A DNA stretch of 64,000 bases from Candidatus Shapirobacteria bacterium (GCA_041661765.1 JBAZTV010000002.1:139130-203129); one strand, 5' to 3'; shown: positions 14,401 to 60,454, numbered from the stretch's first letter. The notes: generated from the sequence alone by a model not told the origin. A program made the numbers and translations.

Positions 14401-15992
14401 TTTGGAGTTAAAGTGAAACGACATTTATAGGTTCCATTGGAATAACTTACTAATGATTGTCTATTGCCATTGATATTACTAAAATCGCTTAACCAAAAAG
14501 TAGTTTGATTATCGGCTAAGGTTAGAGTACCTAAATTAGTTTCACTGTTATCATTATTAATTTTTGTACCAGTAATTACGTAATCTTTTAAATTAATGTC
14601 ATCAGGAAAATCAAGAGTTACTTGAGTGTCGACTAAATATTTACTGTCAAGACCAGTTAAATTACCAAAAGTTCCTGTAGTAGTAATGGATCCAGGTGAA
14701 CCGGCGGCAAATGAATAATTGGCTTTATCATTAGTGAAGCCAATATTGGTGTCGATACCATTAATATTTAACTCAGTACCTGGGCTGAGTAGATACCAAT
14801 CATTTGGATTAGTGGTAAATTTATCACTTTCTGCCCCGACTAATTGAGAAGAAATATTCAGACTCTTAGCTGACATACCATCAGGTAATTTAAATTTAAT
14901 AGTGTAAGTTAAAGTTCCATAATTTCGGCCAACAAACATACTGTAATTCATTGATTGTCGACCAAAACCAAACAAATCACTAAATTGACTAATCCAAAAA
15001 CTACTTTGATCGGCAGGTAAAGTATAAGAGCCCATACTTTGGTAATTAGTTGTGCCTTTAACTTCACCAGTCATAGGAATACTGCCAGTGACACCTGTAG
15101 GTCGATTAAAAGTAATTAAAGTATCAAGTTTATATTTAGGATCAATATTAGAAAAATTTCCCAAATTTAAACTGATATAAAGAGTAACATCGGAACCGCT
15201 GGTGGTAGTTATACTAGAAATGCTAGTTGATCTGCCGGGATTTGTATTGCTTTGAGCAAAAATCACTGAAGAATTGGGCATTATTTGATCACTAGTAGGG
15301 ATAAAGATAGTAAAATGATTTAAATTTTTAATAGAAATCGAGGTATCTGTTTTTACAATGGCATTTTCTACTTTTTGAGCAGAATCAATTTTTGAAATTT
15401 CTTCGGCAAATTTTACACTAATATTTTCACCTCTTGATGATACTGGAATTGGCAAAGAAAGATTGTAAGTAAAAGAACCATCTGCCATATCCGAGGTAAT
15501 ACTATAAACTTTTTCTGACAAGGACTCTGTTTGCTCTATTTGTTCTTTAGTAAGAGTTATTTCTTCAATTTTTATATTACCTGCAGGACTAGGAAGCTTG
15601 GTAAAAGTTAATTTTATTTCATTATTTTGAGGAGCAATATATTCTTTATTTAATTCTACTTTTTCAAATGTCCATGGTGAAGGAATATTGGTTGGGGTTG
15701 GGGTTGATTGAATCGTTGGTGTTACCTCGATAGTTGAGGTTATAGTTGGAATTGCAGTCGGTTCAATAGTTGGTATAACTGTTGGTTCTAATAGTTCTGA
15801 TGTTGATGTTGATGTTGGAATTGCAGTTGGTTCAGTAATTTGAACAATTTCAGTGGGAGTGGGGATAGTTTCTTCGGCATAAACTGGTTGAGCAATAAAT
15901 AAAAATGGGGTGAAAGAATTCAATAAAAGAGAGATATTTGCGAGAATGGCAATAAATTTTTTTGCGGATTTTGTTTTAATCATAAAGGTCAA
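8454..15992 (-). CDS. giant secreted surface/adhesin-like repeat protein (2512 aa)
   Basis: The signal peptide is MTFMIKTKSAKKFIAILANISLLLNSFTPFLFIAQPVYA. A Thr/Pro-rich N-terminal linker follows. There are at least 7 copies of a module of about 155 aa with GLDSKYxVDTxVTL, NLKDY, DNQTxFWLSDF and GAExxNFxNxxNWY motifs. Two MBG-like segments (KTYGDFDF, KTYGDTDP) and Ig-like segments are present. A poly-Ser/Asn tract is followed by an FN3-like domain near the C-terminus. No LPXTG motif. Confidence 0.8.
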   Translation of the reverse strand: MTFMIKTKSAKKFIAILANISLLLNSFTPFLFIAQPVYAEETIPTPTEIVQITEPTAIPTSTSTSELLEPTVIPTIEPTAIPTITSTIEVTPTIQSTPTPTNIPSPWTFEKVELNKEYIAPQNNEIKLTFTKLPSPAGNIKIEEITLTKEQIEQTESLSEKVYSITSDMADGSFTYNLSLPIPVSSRGENISVKFAEEISKIDSAQKVENAIVKTDTSISIKNLNHFTIFIPTSDQIMPNSSVIFAQSNTNPGRSTSISSITTTSGSDVTLYISLNLGNFSNIDPKYKLDTLITFNRPTGVTGSIPMTGEVKGTTNYQSMGSYTLPADQSSFWISQFSDLFGFGRQSMNYSMFVGRNYGTLTYTIKFKLPDGMSAKSLNISSQLVGAESDKFTTNPNDWYLLSPGTELNINGIDTNIGFTNDKANYSFAAGSPGSITTTGTFGNLTGLDSKYLVDTQVTLDFPDDINLKDYVITGTKINNDNSETNLGTLTLADNQTTFWLSDFSNINGNRQSLVSYSNGTYKCRFTLTPKSDLVGKTIGVSAKIISAESTNFDNSTNWFTSSNTINSLVNIAGFTISLDKTNYITAPNQITTIESTIENGDFSNLDSKYKIDTKVTLIPPQGINLKDLHVDVTCLNSQQQEISIGDVTLTDNQTVVWLSDFTKVARPSLQNYANKNYSCKFTFVPPSSLSNKIISLSTQAVGAEEGNFNNPADWYMVSNTATSSVNIIGITSTITSLEPTISSNSQAIFTNTVNFSDYTGLDSKYKSDLKIDLNAGTNLAGLQIDGYIVNDNIETPIGNITLGQNQTSLWLINDLMQQIRPSLVNHSNENINYRFKINLTTLTGKTLNITNQVVVAEDDNKFNNSTDWFTSSNESSISIKIINPTINFQESSYNTVTGQQTSIDGNVAFGNLTGLDTKYKVDTQVTLDFPDDINLKDYVITGTKINNDNSETNLGTLTLADNQTTFWLSNFSNINGNRQSLVSYSNGTYKCRFTLTPKTELAGKSINVSAKLVGAESGNFDNQNNWYLSSNATTTSINMIENMSGSIVITGDTKFGTTLMVNPTLTNSGTPTYQWKRNDINIDGATASTYTVGLADIGTIITVTATAEVGVGTGSITSTATEVITKADGPVAPPAPILVSKTTTSVTLTANVLNQFSEDGVNWQDSEIFTELNLNHQYTFFTRIKATETTNESVASVGVNITTNKLDQNIFFNTLENKTYGDFDFNVSTIATASSRLLVSFTAFGGCNVSNNMIHINKAGSCTITAHQTGDDNYNAAPDISQSFIINKKNLIISAQNSNKTYGDTDPILTASYSGFINDDDATSLDTLVNLTRTTGENVNNYIITASNAASTNYFIFFEPGTFTINAKPITVTADVQTKERGTSDSTLTYTNSPLVIGDTLSGSLTRVIGEEVGAYLITQGSLNAGTNYVINFIENNLTIIDTITPTLSFYTVSGTNINITYSEEVNTDINILDDHGVKVRDLGSTSITNSLNISWDGKNNSNQIVADGIYTIQVIGTDLAGHTVTDTSKTITVDTTSPIITLIGDSVININIGSTYIDAGAIAFDNYDNDLKVIITGTVDTKNVGSYVIYYDAVDSSNNTAIQVIRTINVVDTKPQISFGEANYVTAVNQPIIISSSINFGDSTGFSSEYKVDVKISFQSDVNLKGLVINGFVNMGNGATTTFIPIVLNDNQITLWLKDFILQDRPSLVSRSNKNYTAYFYISAPANLAGKSIQVSSVAVVAKDEDFNNPNNWYNSSNIANVNLKIIGSTISFVNNQTNYSITPNSLQTIDSIIGFSDFSGLDSKYLVDTKVDFSPPVGINLKDYIITAIKINNDDTQTVLGTLTLGDNQTSFWLSDFTNIDRRSLVNYSNGTYKVRFIFTPKTNLAGKSMNISAQLIGAEDGNFDNPNNWYVSSNIITANINIIDNIAPIITINDYNHNPTNQDITVTATTNEGSLNTNSHIFTQNGTFDFIATDSVGNVTTETVTISNIDKSPPSIPSASIISGTYATSQTITLSSNGSSIIKYSNSVKLDNCNSGTIYTAPFLIDHSQIISVIACDLLGNMSSNIFSYNITQSIENTKPLVSDQGQLTMSNEIKLDNKSSLDLTSGINTVSGNKVTVDGFEVNLNNYNLGDLSAGVNLTEVKNVGDKSIKVEKAVTLQSSNNESIITLTNNSLNNIKVEIPNSTTILGPLNWNGKIEPPKSISNSGNAPSGFSVNNTAIEVGSPSVILLFDKPISIILNNVTGDVAYRPAGSNNWTRISQKCGGSYDNPNNPIFPGECYISNGINTKIFTYHFTTFAGLTKNSASSSSNNSSSSSSSNNSSSSSSSNNSSSSCSSSVCNDSKPESAPVLISARVTGFNEVTLTWKPAKGSVTYYLVAYGNKPGQMIYGNPNVGGRDTLSYTVKGLSIKNRYYFKVRAGNGCTPGDFSNEVSVVVTKGGSYVNQAVGFYPNVLGASTVNKRIKKPLNSNLIIPESTPKGVTPTEIQKQSDNSNKLFDYIKKIFSKFFF
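8989..9068. repeat. 27-bp tandem repeat, about 2.9 units
   Basis: gatgaattatttgaagaagatgaacta is repeated head-to-tail. On the minus strand it encodes the SSSNNSSSS low-complexity tract of the giant protein. Confidence 0.8.
13021..13270. repeat. intragenic direct repeat, copy 1 (about 250 bp, near-identical to 14408-14680)
   Basis: Runs of more than 200 bp are identical with only a few mismatches. It encodes VDTQVTLDFPDDINLKDYVITGTKINNDNSETNLGTLTLADNQTTFWLS... Confidence 0.8.
14408..14680. repeat. intragenic direct repeat, copy 2
   Basis: The same sequence as 13021-13270, 1387 bp downstream. This corresponds to a protein super-repeat of about 462 aa. Confidence 0.8.
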
Positions 15993-42667: not shown

Positions 42668-43969
42668 ATGGTTCAAAAATTAAAAAACGTCCTTCTCCAT
42701 CTACCAAAAAGTTTTTTTTACAATTTAAAGTACGGTTTTCCAAGTAAAAAATTAACTCTAATTGGTATCACTGGAACAGACGGTAAAACTACTACTTGCA
42801 CCCTAGTCAATGAAATATTAAAACAATCTGGTCTAAAAACTGGGTTAATCACTACTATTGGTGCAAAAATTGGCGATAAAGAAATAGATACTGGTTTTCA
42901 CACCACCACTCCAGATCCATCTATTCTCCAAAAAATTTTTACCGATATGGTAAAGGCTGGAATAACCCATGTTGTCTGCGAAGTTACCTCACATGCTCTT
43001 GATCAATACCGTTTTTGGGGTTGTAATTTTGAAGTTTCTGGTATCACCAATACCTCACACGAACATCTCGATTATCATAAAAATATAGAATCTTATATTG
43101 GAACTAAAGCTAAGCTTTTTTCAATTTCTAAAAGTGCTGTTTTAAATAAAGACGATCAATCTTTCGACATAATTAAAAAACAAATCAAAATCCCTTTTAA
43201 AACATTTAGTATTAAAAAAACTTCAGATTATCAAGCCCAAAAAATTAAATTAGATTCAAATTCATTAAGTTTTCATGTTAATGGTCAAAAATTTACCACC
43301 GACAGTAATTATGAATATCAGGTTTATAACATTCTGTTGGCCACTGCAATTTGTTATAAATTAGAAATAAATTCAGAAATAATTCAACGAGTAATAAAAC
43401 ATTTTCCAGAAACAAAAGGTCGTCGAGAAGAAATCCAAAATGACCTTAAATTTAAAACAATCATTGATTTTGCTCACACTCCATTTGCTCTTGAATCATC
43501 ACTTTCTTCACTTAACAAAACTAATCAAGGAAATACTATCGTTATTTTTGGAGCCACTGGTGGACGAGACCAAAGTAAACGCCCAATAATGGGTGAAATT
43601 GTTTCTAAGTTAGCCAACATCGCCTTAATCACTTCGGATGATACTAGAAACGAAAAAATAGAAAATATTAATAAACAAATAATAAGTGGTATTGATCCAA
43701 AAAAATCAGAACTAATTGATTATCAAGAAATTAAAAATAAAAAGCAAATTCAAAAAGTACTCGAATTATCCAATAAAAAATTTATATATTTTAATATTCC
43801 CAATCGTCAAGACGCCTTTAATTTAGCCATAAAATTAGCTCAACCAAACGATGTTGTTATTGCCTGTGGTAAGGGCCATGAAACCACTATTCTCCATGGA
43901 CACACTGAATATCCCTGGTCGGAAGCAGAAGCTTTTAGAACTGCCTTCAGACTTCGAAAAACAAAATAA
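42668..43969 (+). CDS. murE: UDP-MurNAc-tripeptide synthetase (MurE-type Mur ligase, short N-terminus)
   Basis: P-loop IGITGTDGKTTT, GATGGRDQSKRPIMG and TSDDTRNE, which is a variant of the DNPR motif with the Arg retained. Confidence 0.7.
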   Translation: MVQKLKNVLLHLPKSFFYNLKYGFPSKKLTLIGITGTDGKTTTCTLVNEILKQSGLKTGLITTIGAKIGDKEIDTGFHTTTPDPSILQKIFTDMVKAGITHVVCEVTSHALDQYRFWGCNFEVSGITNTSHEHLDYHKNIESYIGTKAKLFSISKSAVLNKDDQSFDIIKKQIKIPFKTFSIKKTSDYQAQKIKLDSNSLSFHVNGQKFTTDSNYEYQVYNILLATAICYKLEINSEIIQRVIKHFPETKGRREEIQNDLKFKTIIDFAHTPFALESSLSSLNKTNQGNTIVIFGATGGRDQSKRPIMGEIVSKLANIALITSDDTRNEKIENINKQIISGIDPKKSELIDYQEIKNKKQIQKVLELSNKKFIYFNIPNRQDAFNLAIKLAQPNDVVIACGKGHETTILHGHTEYPWSEAEAFRTAFRLRKTK

Positions 43970-43970
43970 T

Positions 43971-44579
43971 ATGACTCAGTTTAATTTAAAAAATACCAAT
44001 AATATTGATCAAAATTATAAAAATGGTCTCCTTCCTCAAAGAAACGACAAAAATTTATTTTATTCTCAATCCAGCAGCCGTTCTAATTTAAAAAACTTCA
44101 ACTTAAATTCAGAAAATCGCCGAATTTTAAGAAAAACAGATGACTTTAGTTTTGAGAAAATGCTTTTAAAAGATTTTAATTATAACGTCAAAGTTCAAAA
44201 AGAAATCTCTACTTGGATAAAAACACTTGATTGGAATTTTCCAATAAGTTCAATTAAAAATGTTTTCAAAAATCATATTTTTAATTATATATATATATGG
44301 AAAGATAAACAAAAAAATATCATTGCTTACTCTCTTTGTTATTTCTCAAAAGATATTAGCCATATCGCCTACGTTTTTTACAACCCAAAATTAACCCATG
44401 AAAATTTACCTATCCGCTTAGTTTTACAAGTCATTATCGACAGCCAAAAATTAGGTCTAAAATATTGTTATCTCGGTCGCTTTTCTCAAGATATTGGTTT
44501 TTACAAAAGAAATATGCCAGGTTTTGAATATTTTGAAAACAATCAATGGCTTCCATATAAAAATTTGTTTAAAATTTAA
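43971..44579 (+). CDS. ATE/Bpt-like aminoacyl-tRNA--protein transferase-fold protein (GNAT-like), Cys-less
   Basis: The C-terminus LGLKYCYLGRFSQDIGFYKRNMPGFEYFENNQW resembles the ATE_C core (GLxYxYLGYWI...KMxYKxxFxPxExL...W). The N-terminal F.L.S.ENRRILRK resembles ATE_N. Confidence 0.4.
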   Translation: MTQFNLKNTNNIDQNYKNGLLPQRNDKNLFYSQSSSRSNLKNFNLNSENRRILRKTDDFSFEKMLLKDFNYNVKVQKEISTWIKTLDWNFPISSIKNVFKNHIFNYIYIWKDKQKNIIAYSLCYFSKDISHIAYVFYNPKLTHENLPIRLVLQVIIDSQKLGLKYCYLGRFSQDIGFYKRNMPGFEYFENNQWLPYKNLFKI

Positions 44580-44581
44580 TT

Positions 44582-45955
44582 ATGCATATTCATATTTTAG
44601 GAATCGCCGGAACTATGACTGCCTCATTAGCCATCGCCCTAAAAAAAGAAGGGCACGTTATTACTGGTTCAGATCAAGAAAAAATTTATCCACCTATTAG
44701 TACTATTCTCAAAAAAGCCAACATCAAAATCAATTCTTCAAAAATTAATTCGACTATAGATTTAGCCATAATTGGTTCATCTTTTTCTAATTTTCAAAAA
44801 ACCAAAGAAGAGCTTGAGCAAATAAAAAAATTAAATATCAAATATATTTCCGCCAGTGAGTTTATTGCCCAAAATTTAAGCAAAGAAGACTCTATCTTAA
44901 TTGCCGGAACCTACGGTAAAACCACTATTTCCTCTCTTGTCTCTTGGATTTTTGATCAGGCCAATTTAAACCCCAATTATATGTTCGGCGGAAAAGCACT
45001 TAATCATTTTCCCTCAGTTAATATCTCCCCATCAAATTGGTCTATTATCGAAGCCGATGAATCAATTCATGGTCTCGACACTCAAGCCAAATTTTTATAT
45101 TACCCAGTCAAATTTTTATTACTAACTAGTGCTGATTGGGAACACAAAGATTCTTATTCCACCGAAATTGAAAATTTTAATGCCTTTAAAAAATTAATTT
45201 TAAATGTTCCCACTGATGGAATTTTATTTATAAATTCCCAAGGATATCAAACAAAAGAACTAAGTCTTTATTCAAAATCAAAAATAATTACCTATAATTC
45301 ACCAACTTCTGATTATTTTATAAAAAATATAAAAATCAAAAAAAATTTTTCCATTTTAGACATCAAAACTCCTAGAAATATTATCCAAATCAAAACTAAA
45401 TTAATTGGCCAATTCAACTTTGAAAACATTTTAGCCGCCATCACTATTGTTGATAGTTTAAATATTCCCCAAACTAAAATTAAACAAGCCATTTCAAAAT
45501 TTAAAGGTATTAATCGTCGAATTGAAAAAATTTATGATCATGGAAATATTATTATATTTGATGATTTTGCCCAATCTTCCAATAGAATAAAATCAACTAT
45601 TGCTGCTATAAAATTTCATTATCCAAAAAATAATATCAAAATTTTATACCAACCTCACGCTTCCTTTATTCAACACAAGAAAAGCCTAAAAGAATTTAAA
45701 AACGTTTTTGATTCAGTTTCTGAAGTCGTCTTGTCTAAATTAAGTTTTAATCATAAAGTTGAAAAAAATAATCGTGTCACTGCCAAAGATTTTAAAGAGG
45801 TGGTTGGTAATAAATTAATATATCTTCCCATCGATAAAGATATTTGTTCTTTTTATAAAAAAAATCTCAAAAGTGGCGATATTTTAATTAATATGAGCTC
45901 TGGCGGTTTTAGTGGAAATAAAATTGTAAAATCTATTATTAATTCTTTAAAATAA
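44582..45955 (+). CDS. Mur ligase of the MurC/Mpl clade, with Mpl-like N-terminal signature
   Basis: MHIHILGIAGTMTASLAIALKKEGHVITGSDQEKIYPPISTIL (IHILGIxGTxMxxLA and YPPMST are Mpl-typical). P-loop GTYGKTT. Confidence 0.65.
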   Translation: MHIHILGIAGTMTASLAIALKKEGHVITGSDQEKIYPPISTILKKANIKINSSKINSTIDLAIIGSSFSNFQKTKEELEQIKKLNIKYISASEFIAQNLSKEDSILIAGTYGKTTISSLVSWIFDQANLNPNYMFGGKALNHFPSVNISPSNWSIIEADESIHGLDTQAKFLYYPVKFLLLTSADWEHKDSYSTEIENFNAFKKLILNVPTDGILFINSQGYQTKELSLYSKSKIITYNSPTSDYFIKNIKIKKNFSILDIKTPRNIIQIKTKLIGQFNFENILAAITIVDSLNIPQTKIKQAISKFKGINRRIEKIYDHGNIIIFDDFAQSSNRIKSTIAAIKFHYPKNNIKILYQPHASFIQHKKSLKEFKNVFDSVSEVVLSKLSFNHKVEKNNRVTAKDFKEVVGNKLIYLPIDKDICSFYKKNLKSGDILINMSSGGFSGNKIVKSIINSLK

Positions 45956-45958
45956 TCT

Positions 45959-47287
45959 ATGTCCAGATATATCATTAATGGTGGTAAACCACTTAAAGGT
46001 GAAGTTTCTATTAGAGGTGCCAAAAATGCCAGTTTTAAACAAATTATCGCTTCCATGTTAACCGATAAAACAGTTCAATTAAATAATGTTCCAAAAATTT
46101 CAGATGTCAAAATAACCACCAGTATCGCCAAAAGTTTAGGTTGTCAAATAAACCAAATAGGGGATCACAGTCTAGAATTAAAAACTTCTAAAATAACTAA
46201 TTCAACAGTGCCCAATGGTACTGGTGAAAAATCTAGAACCTCATTTATATTTGTCGCCCCATTACTCACCAGAACTGGAACTGCCATTGTTCCTACTCCA
46301 GGCGGCGATAAATTAGGTAATAGACCATTAGACCGTCTTTTTGATTGTTTTTCAAAAATGAATATTCATTTTTCTGAAACTGAAAATAATATTACATTTA
46401 ACACCGACAAAATTATCGGCACTCATTATACTTTTACAAAACCTTCTCATACCGTCACCGAAGTAATCCTTATGACTGCCACTCTCGCTAACGGCGAAAC
46501 CATCATCGACAACGCTGCTCTTGAACCAGAAATCGATGACTTAATCTTAATGCTAAATCAGATGGGAGCTAATATTCAAAGAGATCTAAAAAATAATAAA
46601 AGAATAATTATTCAAGGTGTATCTAAATTAAAAGGAACTGAACATGATGTAATTTGCGATCGAAATGAAATAGTCACTTTCGCTTGTGCCGCTTTAGCTA
46701 CTAAAGGGTCAGTCTCTATTTTTAGAGTCAAACCAAAAGTTGTTCAAACATTTTTAGAAATTATTGAAAAAATGGGGGCTAAAATTAAAACTGGTAATGA
46801 TGAAATTTATGTTGAATGGGTTAAGCCTTTGACCAATATTGATATTGAAACTGGACCAGAACCAGAATTTATGACCGATTGGCAGGCTATTTTTTCTGTT
46901 CTATTAACTCAAACCGTTGGTTGTAGTTCTATTATCGAAAAGGTCTATCCTAGCCGATTTCAACACATTGAAAATCTTAAAAAAATGGGAGTTAAGGTTA
47001 ATTTTTTCAATCCAGAAATAAATAATCCGAACGAATATTATCAATTTAATAAAGAAAGTGATCGTCCTGAATATTTTCATGGTGTTAAAATTTATGGCCC
47101 TACCAAATTAAAACCATCTAATTTTGTTATTAAAGATCTTCGAGCTGGAGCCTCAGCTACAATTGCTGCTCTAACCGCATCTGGTAAATCAACTATTGAT
47201 GGAGTCGAGTATATTGAGAGGGGATATGAAAAATTAGCTGAGCGTCTTTGGTCTCTAGGTGCTAATATAGAATATATAAAAACATAA
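45959..47287 (+). CDS. murA: UDP-N-acetylglucosamine 1-carboxyvinyltransferase
   Basis: MSRYIINGGKPLKGEVSIRGAKNASFKQIIASML...LDRLF. 442 aa. Confidence 0.9.
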   Translation: MSRYIINGGKPLKGEVSIRGAKNASFKQIIASMLTDKTVQLNNVPKISDVKITTSIAKSLGCQINQIGDHSLELKTSKITNSTVPNGTGEKSRTSFIFVAPLLTRTGTAIVPTPGGDKLGNRPLDRLFDCFSKMNIHFSETENNITFNTDKIIGTHYTFTKPSHTVTEVILMTATLANGETIIDNAALEPEIDDLILMLNQMGANIQRDLKNNKRIIIQGVSKLKGTEHDVICDRNEIVTFACAALATKGSVSIFRVKPKVVQTFLEIIEKMGAKIKTGNDEIYVEWVKPLTNIDIETGPEPEFMTDWQAIFSVLLTQTVGCSSIIEKVYPSRFQHIENLKKMGVKVNFFNPEINNPNEYYQFNKESDRPEYFHGVKIYGPTKLKPSNFVIKDLRAGASATIAALTASGKSTIDGVEYIERGYEKLAERLWSLGANIEYIKT

Positions 47288-47290
47288 TTT

Positions 47291-48325
47291 ATGATTCATC
47301 TATATCTAGGACTACTTCTCTTTTCTTTTTTAATCACCAGTATTTTAGTTATACCTTTCATTAACCTTCTCTATAAATTTAAATTTCAACGACAAACTCA
47401 AAAAACCACTGACTTCCAAAACAAAAGAACTACCATATTCGACAAATTTCACAATCTAAAATCAGGGACACCTGTTGGTGGCGGATTATTGATTATCGCC
47501 ACTGTTTCCATTCTTTTTATATTACTTTTTCCAATTCTTAAATTTTCTCGAATCTTTATTTCATCCAATTACACTATCACCCATGAAATCGCTATTCTAT
47601 TTTTTACTTTCATTAGTTTTGGTATGCTCGGTCTTTATGACGACGTACACAAATTTTTCGGATTCAAAAATACTGGATTCTTCGGCCTAAAAATGATCCA
47701 TAAATTAATTTTACAAATAATAATTTCATTAATCATTTCCTTTATGATTTATTTTCAATTAAAAATTGATTTTATTTATCTACCGTTTTTTGGCGCTATT
47801 AATTTAGGATTTTTCTTTATCCCTATTTCCGTCATTTTTATCACTGGCTTTGCTAATTTCTTTAATATTACTGATGGCTTAGACGGTTTATCTGGCGGAC
47901 TTTTAATGTTTGCTCTTTTTGCGTTTTGGATTTTAGCCAGCACTTCAATGGATACTGTTCTCTCTTCATTTTTAGCTCTCTGGATCGGTTCTCTAATAGC
48001 ATTTCTTTATTTTAATGTTTATCCAGCCAGAATCTGGCTCGGCGATGTTGGGTCACTCTCTTTCGGTGCCACTTTTGCTGTAATTGCTTTACTTTTAGGA
48101 AAAGTCGTTCCTTTAATTATAGTAGGAGCTCCATTCATTATTGAAGGTTTATCCAGTGCTATTCAACTATTCAGTAAAAAATATTTTCATAAAAAAGTTT
48201 TTCCCGCTGCTCCAATTCACCTTACTTTCCAAAACATGGGTTGGGAAGAGCCAAAAATCGTTTTCAGGGCTTGGCTAGCCGGAATTATATTAGCAGTATT
48301 TGGACTATGGTTAGGACTAAATTAG
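47291..48325 (+). CDS. mraY: phospho-N-acetylmuramoyl-pentapeptide transferase
   Basis: FANFFNITDGLDGLSGG and LGDVGSLSFGA motifs. 10 TM helices. Confidence 0.9.
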   Translation: MIHLYLGLLLFSFLITSILVIPFINLLYKFKFQRQTQKTTDFQNKRTTIFDKFHNLKSGTPVGGGLLIIATVSILFILLFPILKFSRIFISSNYTITHEIAILFFTFISFGMLGLYDDVHKFFGFKNTGFFGLKMIHKLILQIIISLIISFMIYFQLKIDFIYLPFFGAINLGFFFIPISVIFITGFANFFNITDGLDGLSGGLLMFALFAFWILASTSMDTVLSSFLALWIGSLIAFLYFNVYPARIWLGDVGSLSFGATFAVIALLLGKVVPLIIVGAPFIIEGLSSAIQLFSKKYFHKKVFPAAPIHLTFQNMGWEEPKIVFRAWLAGIILAVFGLWLGLN

Positions 48326-48846
48326 AACTACAACAAGAGATAGAGAAATATATCGGCTTACCTTATAGTAAGAATATCCTTAAAGACGACAAAATAATCA
48401 AAGAACAATTTCTTGGAGGTAAAGGCAATTGTCGACAAATAGCTACAGAAACTATCCGACTTGCCCAAAAACAAAAAATAGATTTAATTCAATTAAATAA
48501 CCAAGAATTTTATAATTTTCAAAAAAAGAACCATATCGGTATTGATTGTTCTGGCCTTGCCTGTCAATTATTAAATTTTTATTTTAATTCAGAATTAAAT
48601 CCTCGCCAAACTTCCGCCAACATATTGACCTCCACTCCAATTTCAAAAGAAATAAAACCAAATGAAATTAAAACAGGAGATTTGATCCGACAAAAAAACG
48701 GTCATCATGTCTTATTTATCATCGACAAACAAGGCAACACCATTAATTATGTCGACAGTTCATTTTCCGGCAGGGGAGTAAGATATGGAACTGCCGACCT
48801 CACCAATAAATCATTTATCCACCAAGGCTTCTTTCGATTAATTTAA
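48307..48846 (+). CDS. NlpC/P60-like papain-fold cysteine peptidase (putative cell-wall hydrolase)
   Basis: Internal ATG at 48307. The ORF-track start is a TTG inside mraY. IGIDCSGLACQLL provides the catalytic Cys and GDLIRQKNGHHVLFII the His. Confidence 0.4.
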   Translation: MVRTKLELQQEIEKYIGLPYSKNILKDDKIIKEQFLGGKGNCRQIATETIRLAQKQKIDLIQLNNQEFYNFQKKNHIGIDCSGLACQLLNFYFNSELNPRQTSANILTSTPISKEIKPNEIKTGDLIRQKNGHHVLFIIDKQGNTINYVDSSFSGRGVRYGTADLTNKSFIHQGFFRLI

Positions 48847-48861
48847 AATAAAAATCAAAAT

Positions 48862-49020
48862 CTATTTTTCCTCGATTAATTCTCGATATTTTAGTGGAGT
48901 CAAAGATAAAATCTCTACCTCAGTCCCACATTCAGGACATTCAATAATATCTCCCACCATTGTGGCTTCTATTAATTCAATTTCTGTTTCACAATCTGGA
49001 CAAATAACTTTTTCGTTCAT
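48862..49020 (-). CDS. 52-aa LysW-like double CPxCG zinc-ribbon protein (absent from the ORF track)
   Basis: The minus-strand translation is MNEKVICPDCETEIELIEATMVGDIIECPECGTEVEILSLTPLKYRELIEEK. Compare Thermus LysW, ...CPECGAELRL...CEDCGAELEVVGLDPLRLE... The C-terminus ends EEK, not the acceptor EDWGE. Confidence 0.45.
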   Translation of the reverse strand: MNEKVICPDCETEIELIEATMVGDIIECPECGTEVEILSLTPLKYRELIEEK

Positions 49021-49060
49021 GTTTTATTAAAATTAATAACTAGTATAATTAAACTATTAT

Positions 49061-49882
49061 ATGGCAAATACACCTTTAATTAAATTAGAAAATGTTTATC
49101 TAAAAAGAGAAGACTTAAACGAAACCGGCTCAGCTAAAGATCGAGCCATGATTTTTCAAATCGAAAATTTAAAAAAACAGGGTTTTAAAACTGCTGTCAT
49201 TTCCAGCACTGGCAATGCCGCCATTTCCGCCGCCTATTTTTGCCACCTTAATCAAATTGACCTAACAATTTTTGTTTCCCCTAAAATCAATAAAACTAAA
49301 TTTGATTTACTCAAAAAGGATGGTGGTCAAATTTTTATTACCGATCAACCAATTAGTGAATCCATAAAATTTTCCAAAAAAAATCACTCCTATCTTCTTC
49401 GTCAATCCACCGACCCCAGTGCCCTAATTGGTTACCAAGAAATTGGCAAAGAATTAATGAATAAACTACCCCAAATTACAAGTATTTTTGTTCCAGTTGG
49501 CAGTGGTACAACCCTTCTAGGAATTTCTCAAACATTGACATCATCAGTTAAAATCTATGCCACTCAACCAGCCAGTAATTGTCCTTTATCAAAATTTTTT
49601 GATTCAAATTATCAACCAGAAACAGAAAATATCACCGATGCACTTTCCGCTAAATATCTTCCTTTAAAATCTCAAATAATTTCTACCATTAAAAACAGTG
49701 GTGGCACTGGTCTGGTCGTTCAAAATAATGAAATTTTAGAAGCCCAAAAAATACTAGAATCAAATAAAATAAAAACATCTCTAGAAGGTGCTTTAGCTTT
49801 TGCTGGCTTTAAAAAAGCCACTAAAAATAATCTAAATATAGGCAGTTATCCAGTAGTGATTCTAACCGGATGCCAAAGATAA
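49061..49882 (+). CDS. PLP-dependent fold-type II enzyme (threonine synthase / Trp-synthase-beta-like)
   Basis: TPLIKLENVYLKREDLNETGSAKDRA carries the PLP Lys. Then STGNAAISAAYF and a Gly-rich loop VGSGTT. At 273 aa it is short. Confidence 0.55.
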   Translation: MANTPLIKLENVYLKREDLNETGSAKDRAMIFQIENLKKQGFKTAVISSTGNAAISAAYFCHLNQIDLTIFVSPKINKTKFDLLKKDGGQIFITDQPISESIKFSKKNHSYLLRQSTDPSALIGYQEIGKELMNKLPQITSIFVPVGSGTTLLGISQTLTSSVKIYATQPASNCPLSKFFDSNYQPETENITDALSAKYLPLKSQIISTIKNSGGTGLVVQNNEILEAQKILESNKIKTSLEGALAFAGFKKATKNNLNIGSYPVVILTGCQR

Positions 49883-50982
49883 ATCTAGAAACCACTATTA
49901 ATAAATCGCCTTATATTTTCTTTTTTTTAGTCGTCGATAAATTTTTAGATATCGAAATCCCTCAATTAACAAAATTCGAAAAAATTTATCTTTCCGACTA
50001 TCCCTCAATTAAAGAAAAAAACAGCGGCAAATTACTATCAAACCCAAAAGTTATTGACTACATTTTAAAAAAATCTCAAAAGACTAAACTCATTCCTGCC
50101 ATAATTCCTTTTAAACCATCCGCTAAAATTGATTTTTTGTGTCAAAAATATAATTGGATAAATATTAGTAATCCTAGCCCTATTAATCGTTTTTTAGAAG
50201 ACAAAATTAAATTTGCCAAACTTAGTCAAAAATACAAATTACCAACCATTCCTTTTTCCATTGATAATTTTTCTCAAAAAAATTTTTTAAAATATCAAAA
50301 ACTTTATAATAAAAAATTAGTTCTTCAAACCCACTTTGGTTGGGCTGGTAATAGCACATTTTCAGCCGAATCTTGGAATGAAATTAAAGATAAAATTTCT
50401 TCTGATGTTATTGTAAAATACAGCCCCTTTATTAAATCTTCTTATTCCTTATTAAATAATTGTTGTCTTACTAAATTTGGTCTAATTCAAAGTCCACCTG
50501 CTCTTCAATACACTGGAATTTATCCCTATACAAAAAATCCCTTCACTACTGTCGGTCGGCAATGGCCATCTTTTGCTCCCTTAAAAATAACCAATGAAAT
50601 TAATAAAATAACTGAAAATTTCAGTAAAATTTTGAAAGAAATCGGTTATAAAGGTTTTTTTGGTCTCGATTTTTTAATTTATAAAAATAAAGTTTTTTTA
50701 TTAGAATGTAACCCTCGTCTAACCGCATCCTTTGGTTTTTATACAAAAATAGAACAAAAACAAAATATCACTCCTCTTTTCTATTTTCATATTGTTGAAT
50801 TCTTAAAAACTAATTATCAAATTAACCTAAAACAAGAGCAATCAAGATTCAATAATAAAAAAATTATCGGTTCTGAGTTAACCACAAAAGATAAAAATAA
50901 TCACACTCATCAAAAACTAAATTTTGATTACCCTTTATCAAAAACCACCAATCCTATCTCTATTTCCCAAAAAATTAAATGA
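49870..50982 (+). CDS. ATP-grasp carboxylate-amine ligase of unknown specificity
   Basis: GFFGLDFLIYKNKVFLLECNPRLTASFGF is a typical ATP-grasp C-domain. 370 aa. Confidence 0.55.
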   Translation: MPKINLETTINKSPYIFFFLVVDKFLDIEIPQLTKFEKIYLSDYPSIKEKNSGKLLSNPKVIDYILKKSQKTKLIPAIIPFKPSAKIDFLCQKYNWINISNPSPINRFLEDKIKFAKLSQKYKLPTIPFSIDNFSQKNFLKYQKLYNKKLVLQTHFGWAGNSTFSAESWNEIKDKISSDVIVKYSPFIKSSYSLLNNCCLTKFGLIQSPPALQYTGIYPYTKNPFTTVGRQWPSFAPLKITNEINKITENFSKILKEIGYKGFFGLDFLIYKNKVFLLECNPRLTASFGFYTKIEQKQNITPLFYFHIVEFLKTNYQINLKQEQSRFNNKKIIGSELTTKDKNNHTHQKLNFDYPLSKTTNPISISQKIK

Positions 50983-52145
50983 AAGAAACTAAATCTCCTC
51001 TTCTATTTTTGGTTTTTAGTTTAGTTTTTATTGGACTTATTTTTATTTCTATTTCATCATTAAGTGAAGCCAGCTCCTCAATTGGAGATAAATTCTTTTA
51101 TATAAAAAAACAAGGATTTTGGCTTGTTTTAGGAATAATTTCTTTTTATATAACTTCAAAAATCAATATTAAAACTATTAAAAAATTTTCTTTTGCCCTT
51201 TATGCAATTTCCATTTTCGGTTTAATACTGGTTTTAATTCCAAGCCTAGGAAATGAAGCTCTTGGTGCCAGACGTTGGTTGAATTTAGGTTTTACCAGCA
51301 TCCAGCCTTCAGAAATTTTAAAATTAACTTCAATCATTTATTTTTCTTTTCTTTTTTCCAAAAAAGAAAACCTTAATATAAAAAACCTGATTTTTTACCT
51401 TGGTCTTCCTTTTATATTAATAATTGTAGAGCCAAATTTAAGCACCGCTATTTTAATTTCAGCCATAGTTAGTTCCATTTATTATCTTTCCGGAGGAGAT
51501 ATTGTTCCTTTATTTAGTATTTTTTGCATTATTTTAATAATCAGTATTCCATTAATTTTTTTATCACCATATCGATCAGCCAGACTAAAAACTTTTTTAG
51601 AACCACAACAAAATCAAGAAACTTCATCGTACCACAGCAATCAAATCATTCTAACCCTTTCTTCTGGAGGTTTTTTTGGTAAAGGCTTCGCTAATTCGGA
51701 TCAAAAATATAAATTCCTTCCAAAAATTTCCACCGATTCAATTCTTGCTGTTATTGGTGAAGAAATTGGTTTTATAGGAATTTTTGCAGTTTTATTGGTT
51801 TATCTTTCCTTAATAAATTATCTTTTAAGATTTTCTCAAACTATAGATGATCCATTTCAAAGTTTAATAGTATCAGGAAGCGCTTGTTGGATTGCCTATC
51901 AAAGCTTGATTAATATTTCCGCCATTACTGCTCTCATTCCATTAACTGGCGTCACTCTCCCATTTATTTCCTATGGCGGATCCTCCCTTATTACTCTTTT
52001 TATTGTTATTGGTCTAATCAGAAACATCGAAAAAAACCAAAAAATGTTGCTATACTCAAAGAGTGAACACAGTAAAAAAGACGATAATAATCACCGGAAC
52101 ACACTTAACTCCAGCGCTAGAACTCATTCGCCAATTGAAAATTGA
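50979..52145 (+). CDS. ftsW: SEDS-family peptidoglycan glycosyltransferase
   Basis: 10 TM helices. LPFISYGGSSLI C-terminal motif. The hydrophilic tail overlaps murG by 83 bp. Confidence 0.8.
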   Translation: MKETKSPLLFLVFSLVFIGLIFISISSLSEASSSIGDKFFYIKKQGFWLVLGIISFYITSKINIKTIKKFSFALYAISIFGLILVLIPSLGNEALGARRWLNLGFTSIQPSEILKLTSIIYFSFLFSKKENLNIKNLIFYLGLPFILIIVEPNLSTAILISAIVSSIYYLSGGDIVPLFSIFCIILIISIPLIFLSPYRSARLKTFLEPQQNQETSSYHSNQIILTLSSGGFFGKGFANSDQKYKFLPKISTDSILAVIGEEIGFIGIFAVLLVYLSLINYLLRFSQTIDDPFQSLIVSGSACWIAYQSLINISAITALIPLTGVTLPFISYGGSSLITLFIVIGLIRNIEKNQKMLLYSKSEHSKKDDNNHRNTLNSSARTHSPIEN

Positions 52146-56640: not shown

Positions 56641-59493
56641 ATGTCTAAATTTAAGAATATTCCTAATAATGTCAGTTTTCCTGCACTCGAAGAAGAAATA
56701 ATTTCTTTTTGGAAAGAAAACAAAATTTTTGAAAAATCAGTTGATCAAAGATCAGACAAAAACACTTACACTTTTTACGATGGTCCTCCATTTATAACAG
56801 GAATGCCTCATCACGGCCACTTATTATCTAGTATCGCCAAAGACATCATTCCTCGATATCAAACCATGAAAGGCAAAAAAGTTAAACGAGTTTGGGGTTG
56901 GGATTGTCATGGTCTTCCTGCTGAAAATAAAGTTGAAGAAAGACTTGGTCTAAAATCCAAAAAAGATATTGAACAAATTGGTATTCGTCGATATATTGAT
57001 GAATGTTATTCTTATGTTCAGAATGTTTCTCAAGAATGGGAATGGTACATCGACCATATTGGTCGTTGGGTAGATTTTAAAAATGCCTATAAAACCATGG
57101 ATTTAAACTATATGGAGACTGTTATGTGGGTTTTTTCCGAGTTATATAAAAAGGGGTTAATTTACAAAGGTCGTCGAATTTCTTTATATTGTCCTCGTTG
57201 TTCCACCCCACTTTCCAATTTCGAAATCGCCATGGATAATTCCTACAAAGAAGTCGAAGATCCCGCTATCTCTATAAAATTTAAGTTAAAAAATAAAGAT
57301 GCTTATATTTTAGCTTGGACCACCACTCCTTGGACTCTTCCAGGAAATTTAGCTTTAGCCGTAAATAAAAATGAAGATTATGTTGAAGTTTTAGTTAATC
57401 AAGAAAAAATAATTTTAGCCAAAGCCCGATTAGAAACCGTTTTAGCTAATCAAAAATATGAAATTATTAAAGAATTTAAAGGTCAAGAATTAATTGGCCT
57501 TTCTTATCAACCTCTTTATAGTTTTTTTACCCAAACTCTTCCTGATTATAAAATATATCATGCCGATTTTGTGTCTATGACCGACGGCACTGGCATTGTC
57601 CATATCGCCCCTGGCTTTGGTGAAGATGATTCCGCCCTAGGTAAAGAAAATAATTTATCCGTCATCGATCATGTCGATGATGAAGGAAAAATAATTGAAC
57701 AAGTGACTCCCTTTGCTGGACTATTTGTAAAAAAAGCTGACCCTTTAGTTATTGATGATTTAAAATCCAGAAACTTAATTTTTAAAGAAGAAAAAATCAA
57801 ACACAGTTATCCTTTTTGTTATCGCTGCGGCACTCCGTTAATTTATAAATCTCAAACTGCTTGGTATCTTAACGTTCAATCTATAAAAGATGGCATGAAA
57901 ACCACCAATCAAAAAATAAATTGGATTCCGGAACATATTAAAAATGGTCGTTTTGGGCAGGGGATTGAAACCGCTCCAGATTGGTGTCTTTCTCGATCTC
58001 GATATTGGGCCTCTCCAATTCCAGTTTGGGAATGTGATTGTGGTGAAAAATATGTTCCAAACTCAATTGCTAATTTAGAAGCTAAATCTGGTCAAAAGGT
58101 AACTAATCTTCACAAACCAGATATTGACGAAGTCACCATTAAATGTGATAAATGTGGAAAAGAAGTCCATCGGGTTACTGAAGTTTTAGATTGTTGGTTT
58201 GAATCCGGCGCCATGCCTTATGCTGAACGCCATTATCCGTTTGAAAATAAAGATAAATTAAAAAAAGAATTTCCCGCTGATTATATAGTTGAATATATCG
58301 GTCAAACTCGAGGCTGGTTTTACACCCTTCACGTTTTATCCAATGCCTTATTTAAATCAGAATCTTTTAAAAATTGCGTTGTCACGGGTACTATTATGGG
58401 CACTGATGGTCGTAAAATGAGTAAACTTTTCAAAAATTACCCTGATCCAAAAATGGTTATTCAAAAATATAGTGGAGAAGCTATGCGTTTATATTTAATG
58501 GGCGGTGTCATTATGGTTGGTGAAAATATGAATATCAACGAGAAAGAAATAGAGGATAAAGTTAAATTTGTTCTTTTACCTCTTTGGAATTGTCTTAAAT
58601 ATCTCAACACTTATGCTCAAATGCACGATTGGACTCCTGCTTTAAATTCCAAAAATAATTCCACTAATATTCTTGATCAATGGATTATCACTAGAACTGA
58701 TCAGTTAACTCAAGAATTTGCCCAAGAATTGGATAAATATATTATTCCTAATGCTGTTAAATTAATAACTCCTTACATTGAAGATTTATCTCGTTGGTAC
58801 ATTCGCCAATCACGAGATCGATTTGTTAACGGAGACAAAAAAGCTCTTCAAACCCTATGGCAAGTTTTAGTTCAATTTATAAAAACTACTGCTCCATTAA
58901 TGCCATTTATCACTGAATATTTTTATCAAAATTTAGTTTTACCTTTCAATTCAAAAGCCTCTGAGTCTATTCATTTAGAACTTTATCCAGAAACAAAACA
59001 AATTAATCAACAGTTATTAGCCAATATGGTTTATGTTAGAGAAATTTGTGAACAGGGTAATATGATTAGAAAAACTAGCAATTTAAGCACTCGACAACCA
59101 TTGTCTAAAGCCACTATTAATAGTTCTAAAAAAATAAATTTGGATAAATCTTCATTAGACATTATAAAAAATGAATTAAATGTTAAAGCCGTAGAGACGA
59201 CCAATCTGGGCGTCTCAGACCAAAGTATCAACAATGTCTCAGACCAAAATCTAACAGTCACTCTAGATACTAATATCACTCCAAAATTAAAAGCTGAAGG
59301 TGATACTCGCGATTTAATTCGTCAAATTCAAAGTCTTCGTAAAGAAAACCAATTAAACCTTAAAGATAAAATCAAAATTTTTGCCCCAACTTGGCCAGTC
59401 GATTTTGAAAAAGAAATTTTAATAAAAACACTCGGAGTTAGTATTGAAAAATCAGAAAATGTCACGATCTCTCTGGCTTCCAACTCTAATTAG
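56641..59493 (+). CDS. ileS: isoleucine--tRNA ligase (type 2, no C-terminal Zn domain)
   Basis: FYDGPPFITGMPHHGH (HIGH region), RKMSKL (KMSKS) and the WCLSRSRYW editing-domain motif. 950 aa. Confidence 0.9.
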   Translation: MSKFKNIPNNVSFPALEEEIISFWKENKIFEKSVDQRSDKNTYTFYDGPPFITGMPHHGHLLSSIAKDIIPRYQTMKGKKVKRVWGWDCHGLPAENKVEERLGLKSKKDIEQIGIRRYIDECYSYVQNVSQEWEWYIDHIGRWVDFKNAYKTMDLNYMETVMWVFSELYKKGLIYKGRRISLYCPRCSTPLSNFEIAMDNSYKEVEDPAISIKFKLKNKDAYILAWTTTPWTLPGNLALAVNKNEDYVEVLVNQEKIILAKARLETVLANQKYEIIKEFKGQELIGLSYQPLYSFFTQTLPDYKIYHADFVSMTDGTGIVHIAPGFGEDDSALGKENNLSVIDHVDDEGKIIEQVTPFAGLFVKKADPLVIDDLKSRNLIFKEEKIKHSYPFCYRCGTPLIYKSQTAWYLNVQSIKDGMKTTNQKINWIPEHIKNGRFGQGIETAPDWCLSRSRYWASPIPVWECDCGEKYVPNSIANLEAKSGQKVTNLHKPDIDEVTIKCDKCGKEVHRVTEVLDCWFESGAMPYAERHYPFENKDKLKKEFPADYIVEYIGQTRGWFYTLHVLSNALFKSESFKNCVVTGTIMGTDGRKMSKLFKNYPDPKMVIQKYSGEAMRLYLMGGVIMVGENMNINEKEIEDKVKFVLLPLWNCLKYLNTYAQMHDWTPALNSKNNSTNILDQWIITRTDQLTQEFAQELDKYIIPNAVKLITPYIEDLSRWYIRQSRDRFVNGDKKALQTLWQVLVQFIKTTAPLMPFITEYFYQNLVLPFNSKASESIHLELYPETKQINQQLLANMVYVREICEQGNMIRKTSNLSTRQPLSKATINSSKKINLDKSSLDIIKNELNVKAVETTNLGVSDQSINNVSDQNLTVTLDTNITPKLKAEGDTRDLIRQIQSLRKENQLNLKDKIKIFAPTWPVDFEKEILIKTLGVSIEKSENVTISLASNSN

Positions 59494-60454
59494 TTTATTA
59501 ATCCTTTTTTGTATTAATATTTTAATGGTTAGTTCAGTTGCTCCAAACTTGGTTGGTAAGCAATTAATTGCTTGGGGTTTTGGAATAATTTTATTCTGTA
59601 TTGGTAAACAAATAAACTTAAAACAATTAAGTTCCTATAAATGGCCTATCTTTATAGTTTGTAATATTTTTCTATTCCTACCAATCATATTAAACAGTAT
59701 CACTCGCGGTTCTCGTCGATGGATTTATATCGCTGGACAAACCATCCAACCATCTGAATTTGTTAAACCTTGGCTTATGTCATTTTTAGCTAACACCAAT
59801 TTTCCATTACTTCATTTTATTCCTGTCACTATTATTATGGCTCAACCAGACCTTGGTAGTGCTATTTCTGTTTTCTTTTTAATTATTCCCATTATTTTAT
59901 ATAATAAAAAATTACTTCGACTATCAATTATCTTTGGATTAATTTTTATTTTAATTTCACCACTAATTTACAACTACTGTCTTCATGATTATCAACAAAA
60001 ACGAATTACTACCTTTTTAAATCCAAAAGCCGATCCGTTAGGCGAAGGTTATAATGTTATTCAATCTCAGATTGCCATCGGCTCTGGTGGTATTTTTGGT
60101 AAAGGTTATAAAAAGGGGACTCAAGGACAATTATTATTTTTACCCGAAAAACACACTGATTTTATGTTTGCTGCCACCGCCGAAGAATTAGGTTTAGTTG
60201 GTATTTCTATCGTTTTAATTGCTTATTTTTTATTAATCAGTACTCTTTTTAATAAAGCTTTTTCCACTAAAAACCGACCTCTCTTTATATTTACTCTTGG
60301 CATTGCCATCCAAATTTGGATGCAAACTTTTGTAAATATTGGCATGAATATCGGCCTTCTTCCTGTCACTGGAATTCCTTTACCTTTTATTTCTGTCGGC
60401 GGATCATCTTTAATGGCTTTATTATTCTCCCTTGGAATCGTCTACTCTTCATAA
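59444..60454 (+). CDS. rodA: second SEDS-family protein (RodA-like)
   Basis: PDLGSAI, GEGYNVIQSQIAIGSGGIFGKGY and LPFISVGGSSLM. The start is uncertain because it overlaps the ileS end. Confidence 0.75.
   Translation: MKNQKMSRSLWLPTLISLLILFCINILMVSSVAPNLVGKQLIAWGFGIILFCIGKQINLKQLSSYKWPIFIVCNIFLFLPIILNSITRGSRRWIYIAGQTIQPSEFVKPWLMSFLANTNFPLLHFIPVTIIMAQPDLGSAISVFFLIIPIILYNKKLLRLSIIFGLIFILISPLIYNYCLHDYQQKRITTFLNPKADPLGEGYNVIQSQIAIGSGGIFGKGYKKGTQGQLLFLPEKHTDFMFAATAEELGLVGISIVLIAYFLLISTLFNKAFSTKNRPLFIFTLGIAIQIWMQTFVNIGMNIGLLPVTGIPLPFISVGGSSLMALLFSLGIVYSS

Follow-up and report, generated by a model that had tools for sequence, protein, structure and literature searches.

A putative carrier-protein module in the murD slot of the cell-wall gene cluster of Candidatus Shapirobacteria

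We describe a four-gene cassette that lies between mraY and ftsW in the division and cell wall (dcw) gene cluster of a Candidatus Shapirobacteria genome (Microgenomates, Patescibacteria/candidate phyla radiation, CPR). The stretch of DNA analysed, called the window throughout, comprises 64,000 nt (GCA_041661765.1 JBAZTV010000002.1:139130-203129); its G+C content is approximately 30%, and its proteins are nearest to those of Candidatus Shapirobacteria, with identities of up to 91%. An earlier note on this DNA had placed four open reading frames (ORFs) in the mraY-ftsW interval, the place usually taken by murD: a papain-fold P60-like gene, a LysW-like zinc ribbon without the EDWGE tail, a fold-type-II pyridoxal phosphate (PLP) enzyme and an ATP-grasp ligase. 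All four ORFs lie where they had been placed, and the profile matches agree with each of the identities. The cassette and its two flanking genes are as follows.

47291-48325, plus strand: mraY, upstream flank of the slot (TIGR00445, 162 bits; PF00953)
48307 (ATG)-48846, plus strand: NlpC/P60-like putative cysteine amidase, 179 aa, cytoplasmic (Pfam NLPC_P60, PF00877, E 8.7e-5, 22.9 bits against a threshold of 23)
48862-49020, minus strand: LysW-homologous zinc ribbon, 52 aa, two CPxCG motifs, MNEKVICPDCETEIELIEATMVGDIIECPECGTEVEILSLTPLKYRELIEEK (PF21344, Zn_ribbon_LysW, 44.4 bits against a threshold of 27)
49061-49882, plus strand: orphan fold-type-II PLP enzyme, 273 aa (PF00291, 159 bits against a threshold of 35)
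49870-50982, plus strand: orphan ATP-grasp ligase, 370 aa (PF02655, 34.5 bits)
50979-52145, plus strand: ftsW, downstream flank of the slot (TIGR02614, 313 bits; PF01098, 299 bits)

Neighbouring coding regions overlap three times, by 19 nt between mraY and the P60-like gene, by 13 nt between the PLP-enzyme and ATP-grasp genes and by 4 nt between the ATP-grasp gene and ftsW. Thus, the three plus-strand cassette genes are embedded in the operon.

The minus-strand gene encodes a small protein with a net charge of about -10. A family profile built from three sequences (the window, L003 and L005) matches solved LysW chains (5k2m_E, E 1e-8; 3wwl_A, E 3e-8), and judged by these matches the window zinc ribbon is a true LysW homologue. 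The resemblance to LysW that had been noticed earlier holds for the family model PF21344, the threshold of which is passed, and not for the equivalog models, since TIGR01206 gives 35.5 bits against a cut-off of 53.2 and NF041070 gives 34.8 bits against 75. The tail reads ...ELIEEK within a family pattern of ...L(I/V)EEK, and EDWGE is absent. A terminal lysine is found in 78 of 78 orthologues, 73 of which end in EEK. The distant copies (L087-L090, L093-L095, L098, L099 and L102/L103) end in [E/D]EK, as do all of the approximately 90 copies read, even those located beside highly diverged ATP-grasps (phmmer, 116-125 bits to the window protein). We propose this protein as a putative carrier. In one lineage, a gene for a MazG-type nucleoside triphosphate pyrophosphohydrolase is inserted on the minus strand beside the LysW-like gene (L005:8656-8964), and the ATP-grasp cluster of that lineage carries the NCBI name Candidatus Woesebacteria.

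Regarding the PLP enzyme, the best NCBIfam matches are archaeal-type ThrC (PRK08329, 99 bits against a cut-off of 358) and the serine/threonine dehydratases, and the threonine synthase model TIGR00260 gives 39 bits against 167. When the family profile is compared with the PDB, threonine dehydratase (65 bits), serine racemase (58), CysK (54), ThrC (52) and aspartate racemase (50) are matched, and by these scores the enzyme appears about equally distant from serine and aspartate racemases, dehydratases and ThrC, an apparent orphan within fold type II. Its invariant motifs are GSxKDR, containing the Schiff-base Lys26, S-S/A-T/S-G-N-A-A, RQSTDP and the phosphate loop GSG(T/A)T. We propose it as a putative racemase or epimerase.

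The ATP-grasp ligase fails all of the Ddl profiles (TIGR01205, 15.9 bits against 246) and shows weak similarity to PRK06849-type ATP-grasps (24 bits). In structure, it groups with BesA, L-amino-acid ligases, PGM1 and biotin carboxylase, all of which activate a small carboxylate, and stands apart from LysX/RimK, which activate a protein carboxylate. Its best non-carboxylase structural neighbour is BesA, a gamma-glutamyl ligase. In biotin carboxylase, the nucleophile sits on the lysine of a carrier protein. The cassette enzyme is proposed as a putative loading enzyme. Identities as ThrC, PurK, LysX, RimK or Ddl were considered for the cassette enzymes and rejected, since every score lies far below the curated cut-offs; the housekeeping match that would have spoken against the earlier note was not seen, as none of the ThrC, PurK, Ddl and LysX profiles comes at or near its cut-off.

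Natural fusions join the parts of the cassette to each other and to MurD. A profile search of 1.84 billion representative proteins yielded 231 clusters at E<1e-30, and the fusions of the ATP-grasp comprise PLP enzyme to ATP-grasp (P0274, 782 aa, and P0176), ATP-grasp to NlpC/P60 in four clusters (P0175, P0195, P0225 and P0261; Pfam P60, 62-70 bits) and ATP-grasp to GNAT in one cluster. A further fusion joins P60 to MurD (P0314). The fused P60 domains match MepS/Spr and YkfC-type gamma-D-Glu-diamino-acid peptidases. The window P60-like protein aligns with the P60 domain of the ATP-grasp fusions in hhalign (E 1e-4, probability 57%), and a signal peptide is absent by inspection. Across its orthologues the catalytic triad is retained as Cys81 (76 of 76), His134 (77 of 77) and Asp, His or Glu at position 150 (76 of 77). 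An AlphaFold2 model from the single sequence reached a pLDDT of 44 and was discarded. We propose this protein as a putative unloading enzyme or amidase.

The conservation of the arrangement was determined with one genome per GTDB species, giving loci from 80 of 125 ATP-grasp relatives, 67 of which hold both mraY and ftsW. All four genes stand in the same order and orientation in 66 of these 67 species-level Shapirobacteria/Microgenomates loci, with ATP-grasp identities of 41-90% across the species-level loci, and the four-gene arrangement far exceeds chance. Many metagenome-assembled genome records that contain the Shapirobacteria-type cluster (L008-L010, L015-L017 and others; CAY.../CAZ...) are labelled 'uncultured Gammaproteobacteria bacterium', which is evidently a wrong taxonomy.

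The core of the module, comprising the LysW-like protein, the PLP enzyme and the ATP-grasp, also recurs in distant Patescibacteria, either in the murD slot or beside a genuine murD. In the first context (type A), the module lies between mraY and ftsW of an intact dcw cluster with no murD there (L088, L089 and L090). L088 and L089 carry the P60-like gene and L090 does not; the LysW-like gene of L089 is present, though the gene caller missed it. In the second context (type B), the module directly follows murD on an island outside any dcw cluster (L087, L093, L094, L095 and L102/L103). L087 carries a genuine murD (TIGR01087, 258 bits against a cut-off of 212) with orthologues in the other type B loci, and the MurD of L094 is itself a fusion protein that includes the P60 domain. 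The module of L098 and L099 is located 1.5-5 kb from murD, again outside any dcw cluster, and L096 holds a murD locus of the same subfamily with no module within 8 kb on either side. Judged by gene arrangement, the module is tied more closely to murD than to the remaining mur genes. The fusions and the conserved gene order indicate that the LysW-like protein works together with the PLP enzyme and the ATP-grasp, often also with P60, in peptidoglycan precursor synthesis. The link to these precursors in the earlier note is much strengthened by the conserved synteny, by the adjacency to genuine murD elsewhere, and by the PLP::ATP-grasp, ATP-grasp::P60 and P60::MurD fusions.

The surrounding cluster lies on the plus strand and runs in the order rsmH, an ftsL-sized ORF, ftsI, a MurE-type ligase, an ATE_C-like gene, a MurC-like gene, murA, mraY, the four cassette genes, ftsW, murG, a small ftsQ-sized ORF, ftsA, ftsZ, ileS and a second SEDS gene. 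The genes that bear on the argument are given below, together with the truncated ligases of related loci.

42668-43969, plus strand: MurE-type ligase without the N-terminal (UDP-binding) domain (TIGR01085, 344 bits against a cut-off of 257; only profile positions 77-424 matched)
43971-44579, plus strand: ATE_C-like protein sharing its fold with aminoacyl-tRNA-protein transferases (PF04377, 25.5 bits; NCBIfam models for arginyltransferase reach at most 34 bits)
44582-45955, plus strand: MurC-like ligase (TIGR01082, 237 bits against a cut-off of 335; mpl, 178 bits; murD, just 72 bits)
Window 42668-43969, L089:3867-5114, L090:4574-5836, L104:4405-5607 and L106:9001-11450: truncated MurE-/MurF-type ligases (profile matches)
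L104:6556-9356 (JGI Ga0155160_127): MurL-like gene and murD (NF041275, 233 bits against a Xanthomonadales-specific cut-off of 700; murD, 354 bits)

The gene of the window MurE-type ligase is a context gene that possibly acts in the same pathway as the cassette. Since ftsI stops 13 nt upstream, there is no space for its N-terminal domain. The MurE-/MurF-type ligases of this group lack the domain that binds the UDP moiety, their matches beginning at approximately profile position 65-97. A loss specific to cassette carriers was considered and rejected, since the ligases of the cassette-free relatives L104 and L106 are equally truncated. The ATE_C-like gene stands between the MurE-like and MurC-like genes, and in L088 (1331-3268) its counterpart is fused onto the N-terminus of the MurC-like ligase (53% identity, E 9e-68), which suggests that a tRNA-dependent step is coupled to MurC. 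The second SEDS (FtsW/RodA family) gene is located at 59444-60454, after ileS and downstream of ftsZ, an arrangement that is kept in most related loci. Upstream of the dcw cluster, a large polysaccharide/envelope gene block (71-8389 and 16174-37237) contains many GT1, GT2 and GT4 glycosyltransferases, Wzy-like and Wzx/MurJ-like proteins, a Bac_transf priming transferase, nucleotide-sugar enzymes, a sulfatase-family protein, a DUF4012 protein and a Fic-domain protein. Between its two parts, a 2512-aa ORF on the minus strand (8454-15992) combines MBG, bacterial Ig-like, FlgD-Ig and fibronectin-III domains and probably encodes a giant surface protein.

The slot between mraY and ftsW holds no Mur ligase that matches a MurD profile, the ATP-grasp belonging to a different class of ligases, and the only Mur ligases of the window are the MurE-like and MurC-like proteins. 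None of murD, murF, ddl, murB, alr and murI was found within the window by Pfam/NCBIfam scans of ORFs of at least 110 aa, by family hidden Markov models (HMMs) or by phmmer with Patescibacterial MurB, Ddl, MurL, MurD, MurF and Alr as queries, in accordance with the earlier statement that murD, murF and ddl are not in this window. Single-sequence phmmer is too insensitive for Mur ligases, as the MurE-like and MurC-like proteins missed each other; the family HMMs used instead cross-detect. In the dcw cluster itself, murF, ddl and murB are all missing, and mraY follows murA directly with a 3-nt gap (45959-48325); the relatives L089 and L090 have murF between these two genes, and L104 has both ddl and murF there. 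Beyond the window, no murD was found within 10 kb on either side of the cassette in the 80 loci of this clade. Searches with Patescibacterial MurD and MurF profiles gave none on the known cassette-bearing long contigs among their best 120 matches, which were dominated by other lineages.

These absences raise the question of whether the cassette, with the PLP enzyme providing D-Glu, truly replaces MurD in function. In both the window clade and L088-L090, its position is exactly the one usually taken by murD. In L089, the cluster contains murC, murB, murA, murF, mraY and murG, so that only murD and ddl are lacking among the visible genes, murE being presumably upstream, beyond the visible part of the cluster. 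The MurC-like ligase also fits such a replacement, as it falls short of the cut-off for MurC with 237 bits and scores substantially as Mpl with 178 bits. However, at least seven loci pair the module with a genuine murD, and P60::MurD fusions exist. The cassette-free L106 cluster has ftsW directly after mraY, with neither murD nor the LysW/PLP enzyme/ATP-grasp core. murB is missing from the window cluster as well, and we know of no substitute for it. Thus, the absence of murD from a cluster is weak evidence for its absence from a genome. Moreover, a replacement of MurD would leave the carrier without a role. In summary, the earlier claim that the cassette replaces murD stands for the occupancy of the slot and not for the function, and we regard the functional replacement as improbable.

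The cassette-free relatives offer another view of the slot. L105 shows the canonical order, murD included. L104 runs murC-murB-murA-ddl-murF-mraY and is followed by a MurL-like gene, murD and ftsW, its ddl scoring 348 bits. The MurD2/MurL pair constitutes an ATP-dependent route in which L-Glu is added and then epimerised on the nucleotide precursor (PMC8788868). So far, it has been reported from only some Proteobacteria and rare actinobacteria (PMC8788868). Since L104 has MurL-like and MurD genes between mraY and ftsW, this slot appears to serve alternative D-Glu placement in this radiation.

At the broadest level, we consider it somewhat more probable than its opposite that the cassette is a carrier-assisted module for amino-acid activation and modification in the Mur pathway. 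As a specific form of this, we favour, tentatively, a carrier-protein module at the D-glutamate (MurD) step, which would supply D-Glu through an 'inverted LysW' cycle. In LysW, the amine of the cargo is bound to the terminal Glu, so that the carboxyl end of the cargo can be processed. A terminal Lys that holds the cargo by its carboxyl group would leave the alpha-amine free, as a PLP enzyme requires. First, the ATP-grasp would activate a carboxyl group of L-Glu, probably the gamma-carboxyl as in BesA, and link it to the epsilon-amino group of the C-terminal Lys of the LysW-like protein. The tethered Glu would retain its free alpha-amino group, with which the PLP enzyme could form the aldimine and invert the residue to the D-form. 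The P60 amidase, whose relatives are specific for gamma-D-Glu and diamino acids, would then cut the gamma-D-glutamyl-lysine amide. Finally, D-Glu would be set free for MurD, either in solution or next to the enzyme. ATP would drive the conversion from L to D in one direction, as in the MurD2/MurL route. We favour this carrier cycle of inverted polarity because every part of the cassette receives a role. Alternatively, the cargo could be attached to a Glu side chain or, once the Lys has been taken off by P60, to the C-terminal carboxylate, and this last mode would be akin to that of LysX or tubulin tyrosine ligase. The logic of a carrier-protein pathway, which the earlier note had offered as its second option, is plausible. 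Its first option, a non-standard amino acid for the precursors, has nothing pointing to it; one of the D-amino acids D-Glu and D-Ala is the likelier case.

Several points weigh against the D-Glu cycle. First, a plain racemase would suffice for MurD, and the case for ATP, a carrier and an amidase leans on the analogy with MurL. Second, the cycle requires a murD elsewhere in the genome, given that the window clade shows none in the 64 kb or in the flanks of the 80 loci. Third, the asparagine loop of the PLP enzyme reads S-S-T-G-N, with Thr directly before G-N and the invariant Ser one residue earlier; we take the residue before G-N to be Ser, the catalytic base, in serine racemase and Thr in ThrC. 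Fourth, P60 may be accessory or serve otherwise: its standing as an obligatory part of the core is weakened, since L090 and L102 have no detectable P60 nearby and L106 has a P60-like gene without the core. Finally, canonical Alr and Ddl occur only in the dcw clusters of the cassette-free relatives, namely L104 (ddl) and L106, which carries alr and ddl between ftsI and murE.

This last point keeps alive the main rival reading, in which the cassette is a non-orthologous replacement of Alr and Ddl. The PLP enzyme would racemise Ala (or Ser), the ATP-grasp would make D-Ala-D-Ala (or D-Ala-D-X) for MurF, and the LysW-like and P60-like proteins would be accessory. The enzyme classes match the Alr/Ddl pair, the PLP::ATP-grasp fusion exists, and the fully visible cluster of the window clade has neither of the canonical genes. 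In L089 and L090, murF lies beside the cassette and no ddl is seen in the visible part of the cluster. In addition, the window FtsI is a penicillin-binding protein of the DD-transpeptidase type, and proteins of this type need D-Ala-D-Ala termini. A 2024 study reportedly found one of the two racemases to be missing from many genomes of the CPR. However, in broken-up dcw clusters the module stays with murD and not with murF, there is no murF in the cluster of the window clade, and the always-present LysW-like protein and its EEK tail receive no role. The failure of the ATP-grasp in the Ddl profiles and its structural proximity to biotin carboxylase, BesA and L-amino-acid ligases point in the same direction, and the anticorrelation with canonical alr and ddl rests on a few loci, the upstream parts of the L088-L090 clusters being outside the view. 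Thus, we consider this replacement unlikely, yet still a serious candidate. The MurF of L106 is 60% identical to that of L089. Beside its intact copy, L106 also contains a second MurE-like gene that is broken into one ORF for the M-domain and one for the C-domain (5973-7241), and Y1 transposase genes flank its cluster; both features suggest a recent rearrangement of this dcw cluster.

The presence of an ATE/Fem-like transferase gene in the cluster hints at branching of the stem peptides and brings in a branch ligase of the Aslfm/Racfm type. A racemase would make D-Asp (or D-Glu or D-Ser), and the ATP-grasp would join it to the epsilon-amino group of the diamino acid at position 3, with the EEK tail mimicking the ...Glu-Lys acceptor. 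The combination of an ATP-grasp and a racemase in a peptidoglycan context, the weak PRK06849-type similarity of the ATP-grasp (24 bits), the fold-II aspartate racemase among the relatives of the PLP enzyme and the acceptor-like appearance of a terminal Lys preceded by Glu are all consistent with it. However, the linkage is to murD and not to murE or murF, a conserved protein mimic has no reason to exist, and the likeness to Aslfm is one of general description and not of sequence. We regard this reading as very improbable. The same low probability applies to the salvage of muropeptides from the host or the cell itself, in which P60 would cut imported stem peptides, the pieces then being modified and joined again by the PLP enzyme and ATP-grasp. 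CPR bacteria live as episymbionts and have minimal biosynthesis, the relatives of P60 include cytoplasmic YkfC-type recycling peptidases, and the ATP-grasp::P60 fusions look like amidase/synthetase pairs. However, the loci read contain no adjacent transporter or other recycling genes, the carrier would be unexplained, and in some lineages the core lacks P60.

The least probable reading that we considered, and one we hold to be highly doubtful, is that the stem peptide is built partly or wholly on the LysW-like protein instead of on UDP-N-acetylmuramic acid (UDP-MurNAc), which would make MurD dispensable in the window clade. Glu would be tethered to the terminal Lys and inverted by the PLP enzyme, and an ATE-like transferase would add L-Ala to the free amine; ATE-family enzymes normally target N-terminal Asp or Glu of proteins. 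The truncated MurE/MurF would extend the peptide, the MurC-like ligase would join it to UDP-MurNAc in an Mpl-like manner, and P60 would release the product.

Peptidoglycan precursor synthesis is among the most conserved and best-studied pathways of bacteria and a major antibiotic target. To our knowledge, exceptions at the D-Glu step are rare, MurD2/MurL being one of them. Many CPR bacteria reportedly lack one or both of the classical racemases. In the literature searched, we found nothing on the cassette, on LysW in cell-wall contexts or on a missing murD in Patescibacteria, and the module is probably an undescribed variant of an essential cell-wall pathway. A conserved, murD-linked module of a LysW-type carrier, a PLP enzyme, an ATP-grasp ligase and a papain-fold amidase would represent a new use of proteins of the amino-group-carrier type outside lysine, arginine and secondary metabolism, and a candidate for the missing source of D-amino acids in a very large bacterial radiation. 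The four proteins are small and soluble, so that the proposal would be directly testable, and those relatives that lack the cassette and have MurL/MurD or Alr/Ddl in this cluster would serve as natural controls.

We compared the cassette with known systems, of which the closest in its carrier is LysW/LysX, known from lysine/arginine synthesis in Thermus, Sulfolobus and Thermococcus and, as AmCP, from Streptomyces. Both have a small, acidic, homologous zinc ribbon with two CxxC motifs and a conserved C-terminal tail, encoded beside an ATP-grasp ligase and a known or putative releasing hydrolase. The cargo of LysW is Glu or alpha-aminoadipate, held on the gamma-carboxyl group of the terminal Glu of the EDWGE tail. 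In contrast, the tail of the putative cassette carrier ends in EEK and is approximately seven residues shorter; genes for LysZ, LysY and LysJ are lacking, and the ATP-grasp is not a RimK-type LysX. The candidate release enzyme is a papain-fold P60 protein where the LysW system has the M20 peptidase LysK, a fold-II PLP partner is present, and the setting is the dcw/murD locus of Patescibacteria. With BesA of the propargylglycine pathway, PGM1 and the L-amino-acid ligases, the ATP-grasp shares approximately 10% identity and has no sequence-level match, and their genomic contexts are unrelated.

Other parallels concern the pairing of enzymes. Glutathionylspermidine synthetase/amidase, and the tubulin tyrosine ligase/vasohibin cycle on an ...EEY tail, are ligase/amidase pairs. 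In outline, they would resemble the cassette in pairing, and sometimes fusing, an ATP-grasp-type ligase with a papain-fold cysteine amidase and in an acidic ...EE-X tail as the target, whereas they differ in evolutionary origin, in lacking a PLP enzyme and in having a regulatory rather than a biosynthetic role. Alr and Ddl similarly combine a PLP enzyme and an ATP-grasp ligase in a cell-wall cluster; however, the PLP enzyme of the cassette belongs to fold type II and not III, and the additional carrier and amidase and the linkage to murD set the cassette apart. Lastly, the cassette enzymes (PLP enzyme, ATP-grasp, P60 and carrier) are unrelated to MurL of the MurD2/MurL system of Xanthomonas (PMC8788868), and phmmer with the MurL-like protein of L104 found no MurL homologue in the window or the cassette loci. 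Nevertheless, the cassette as we propose it would resemble MurD2/MurL in being an ATP-dependent, one-directional solution beside murD for placing D-Glu at position 2 of the stem, and the MurL-like gene and murD of L104 use the same slot between mraY and ftsW.

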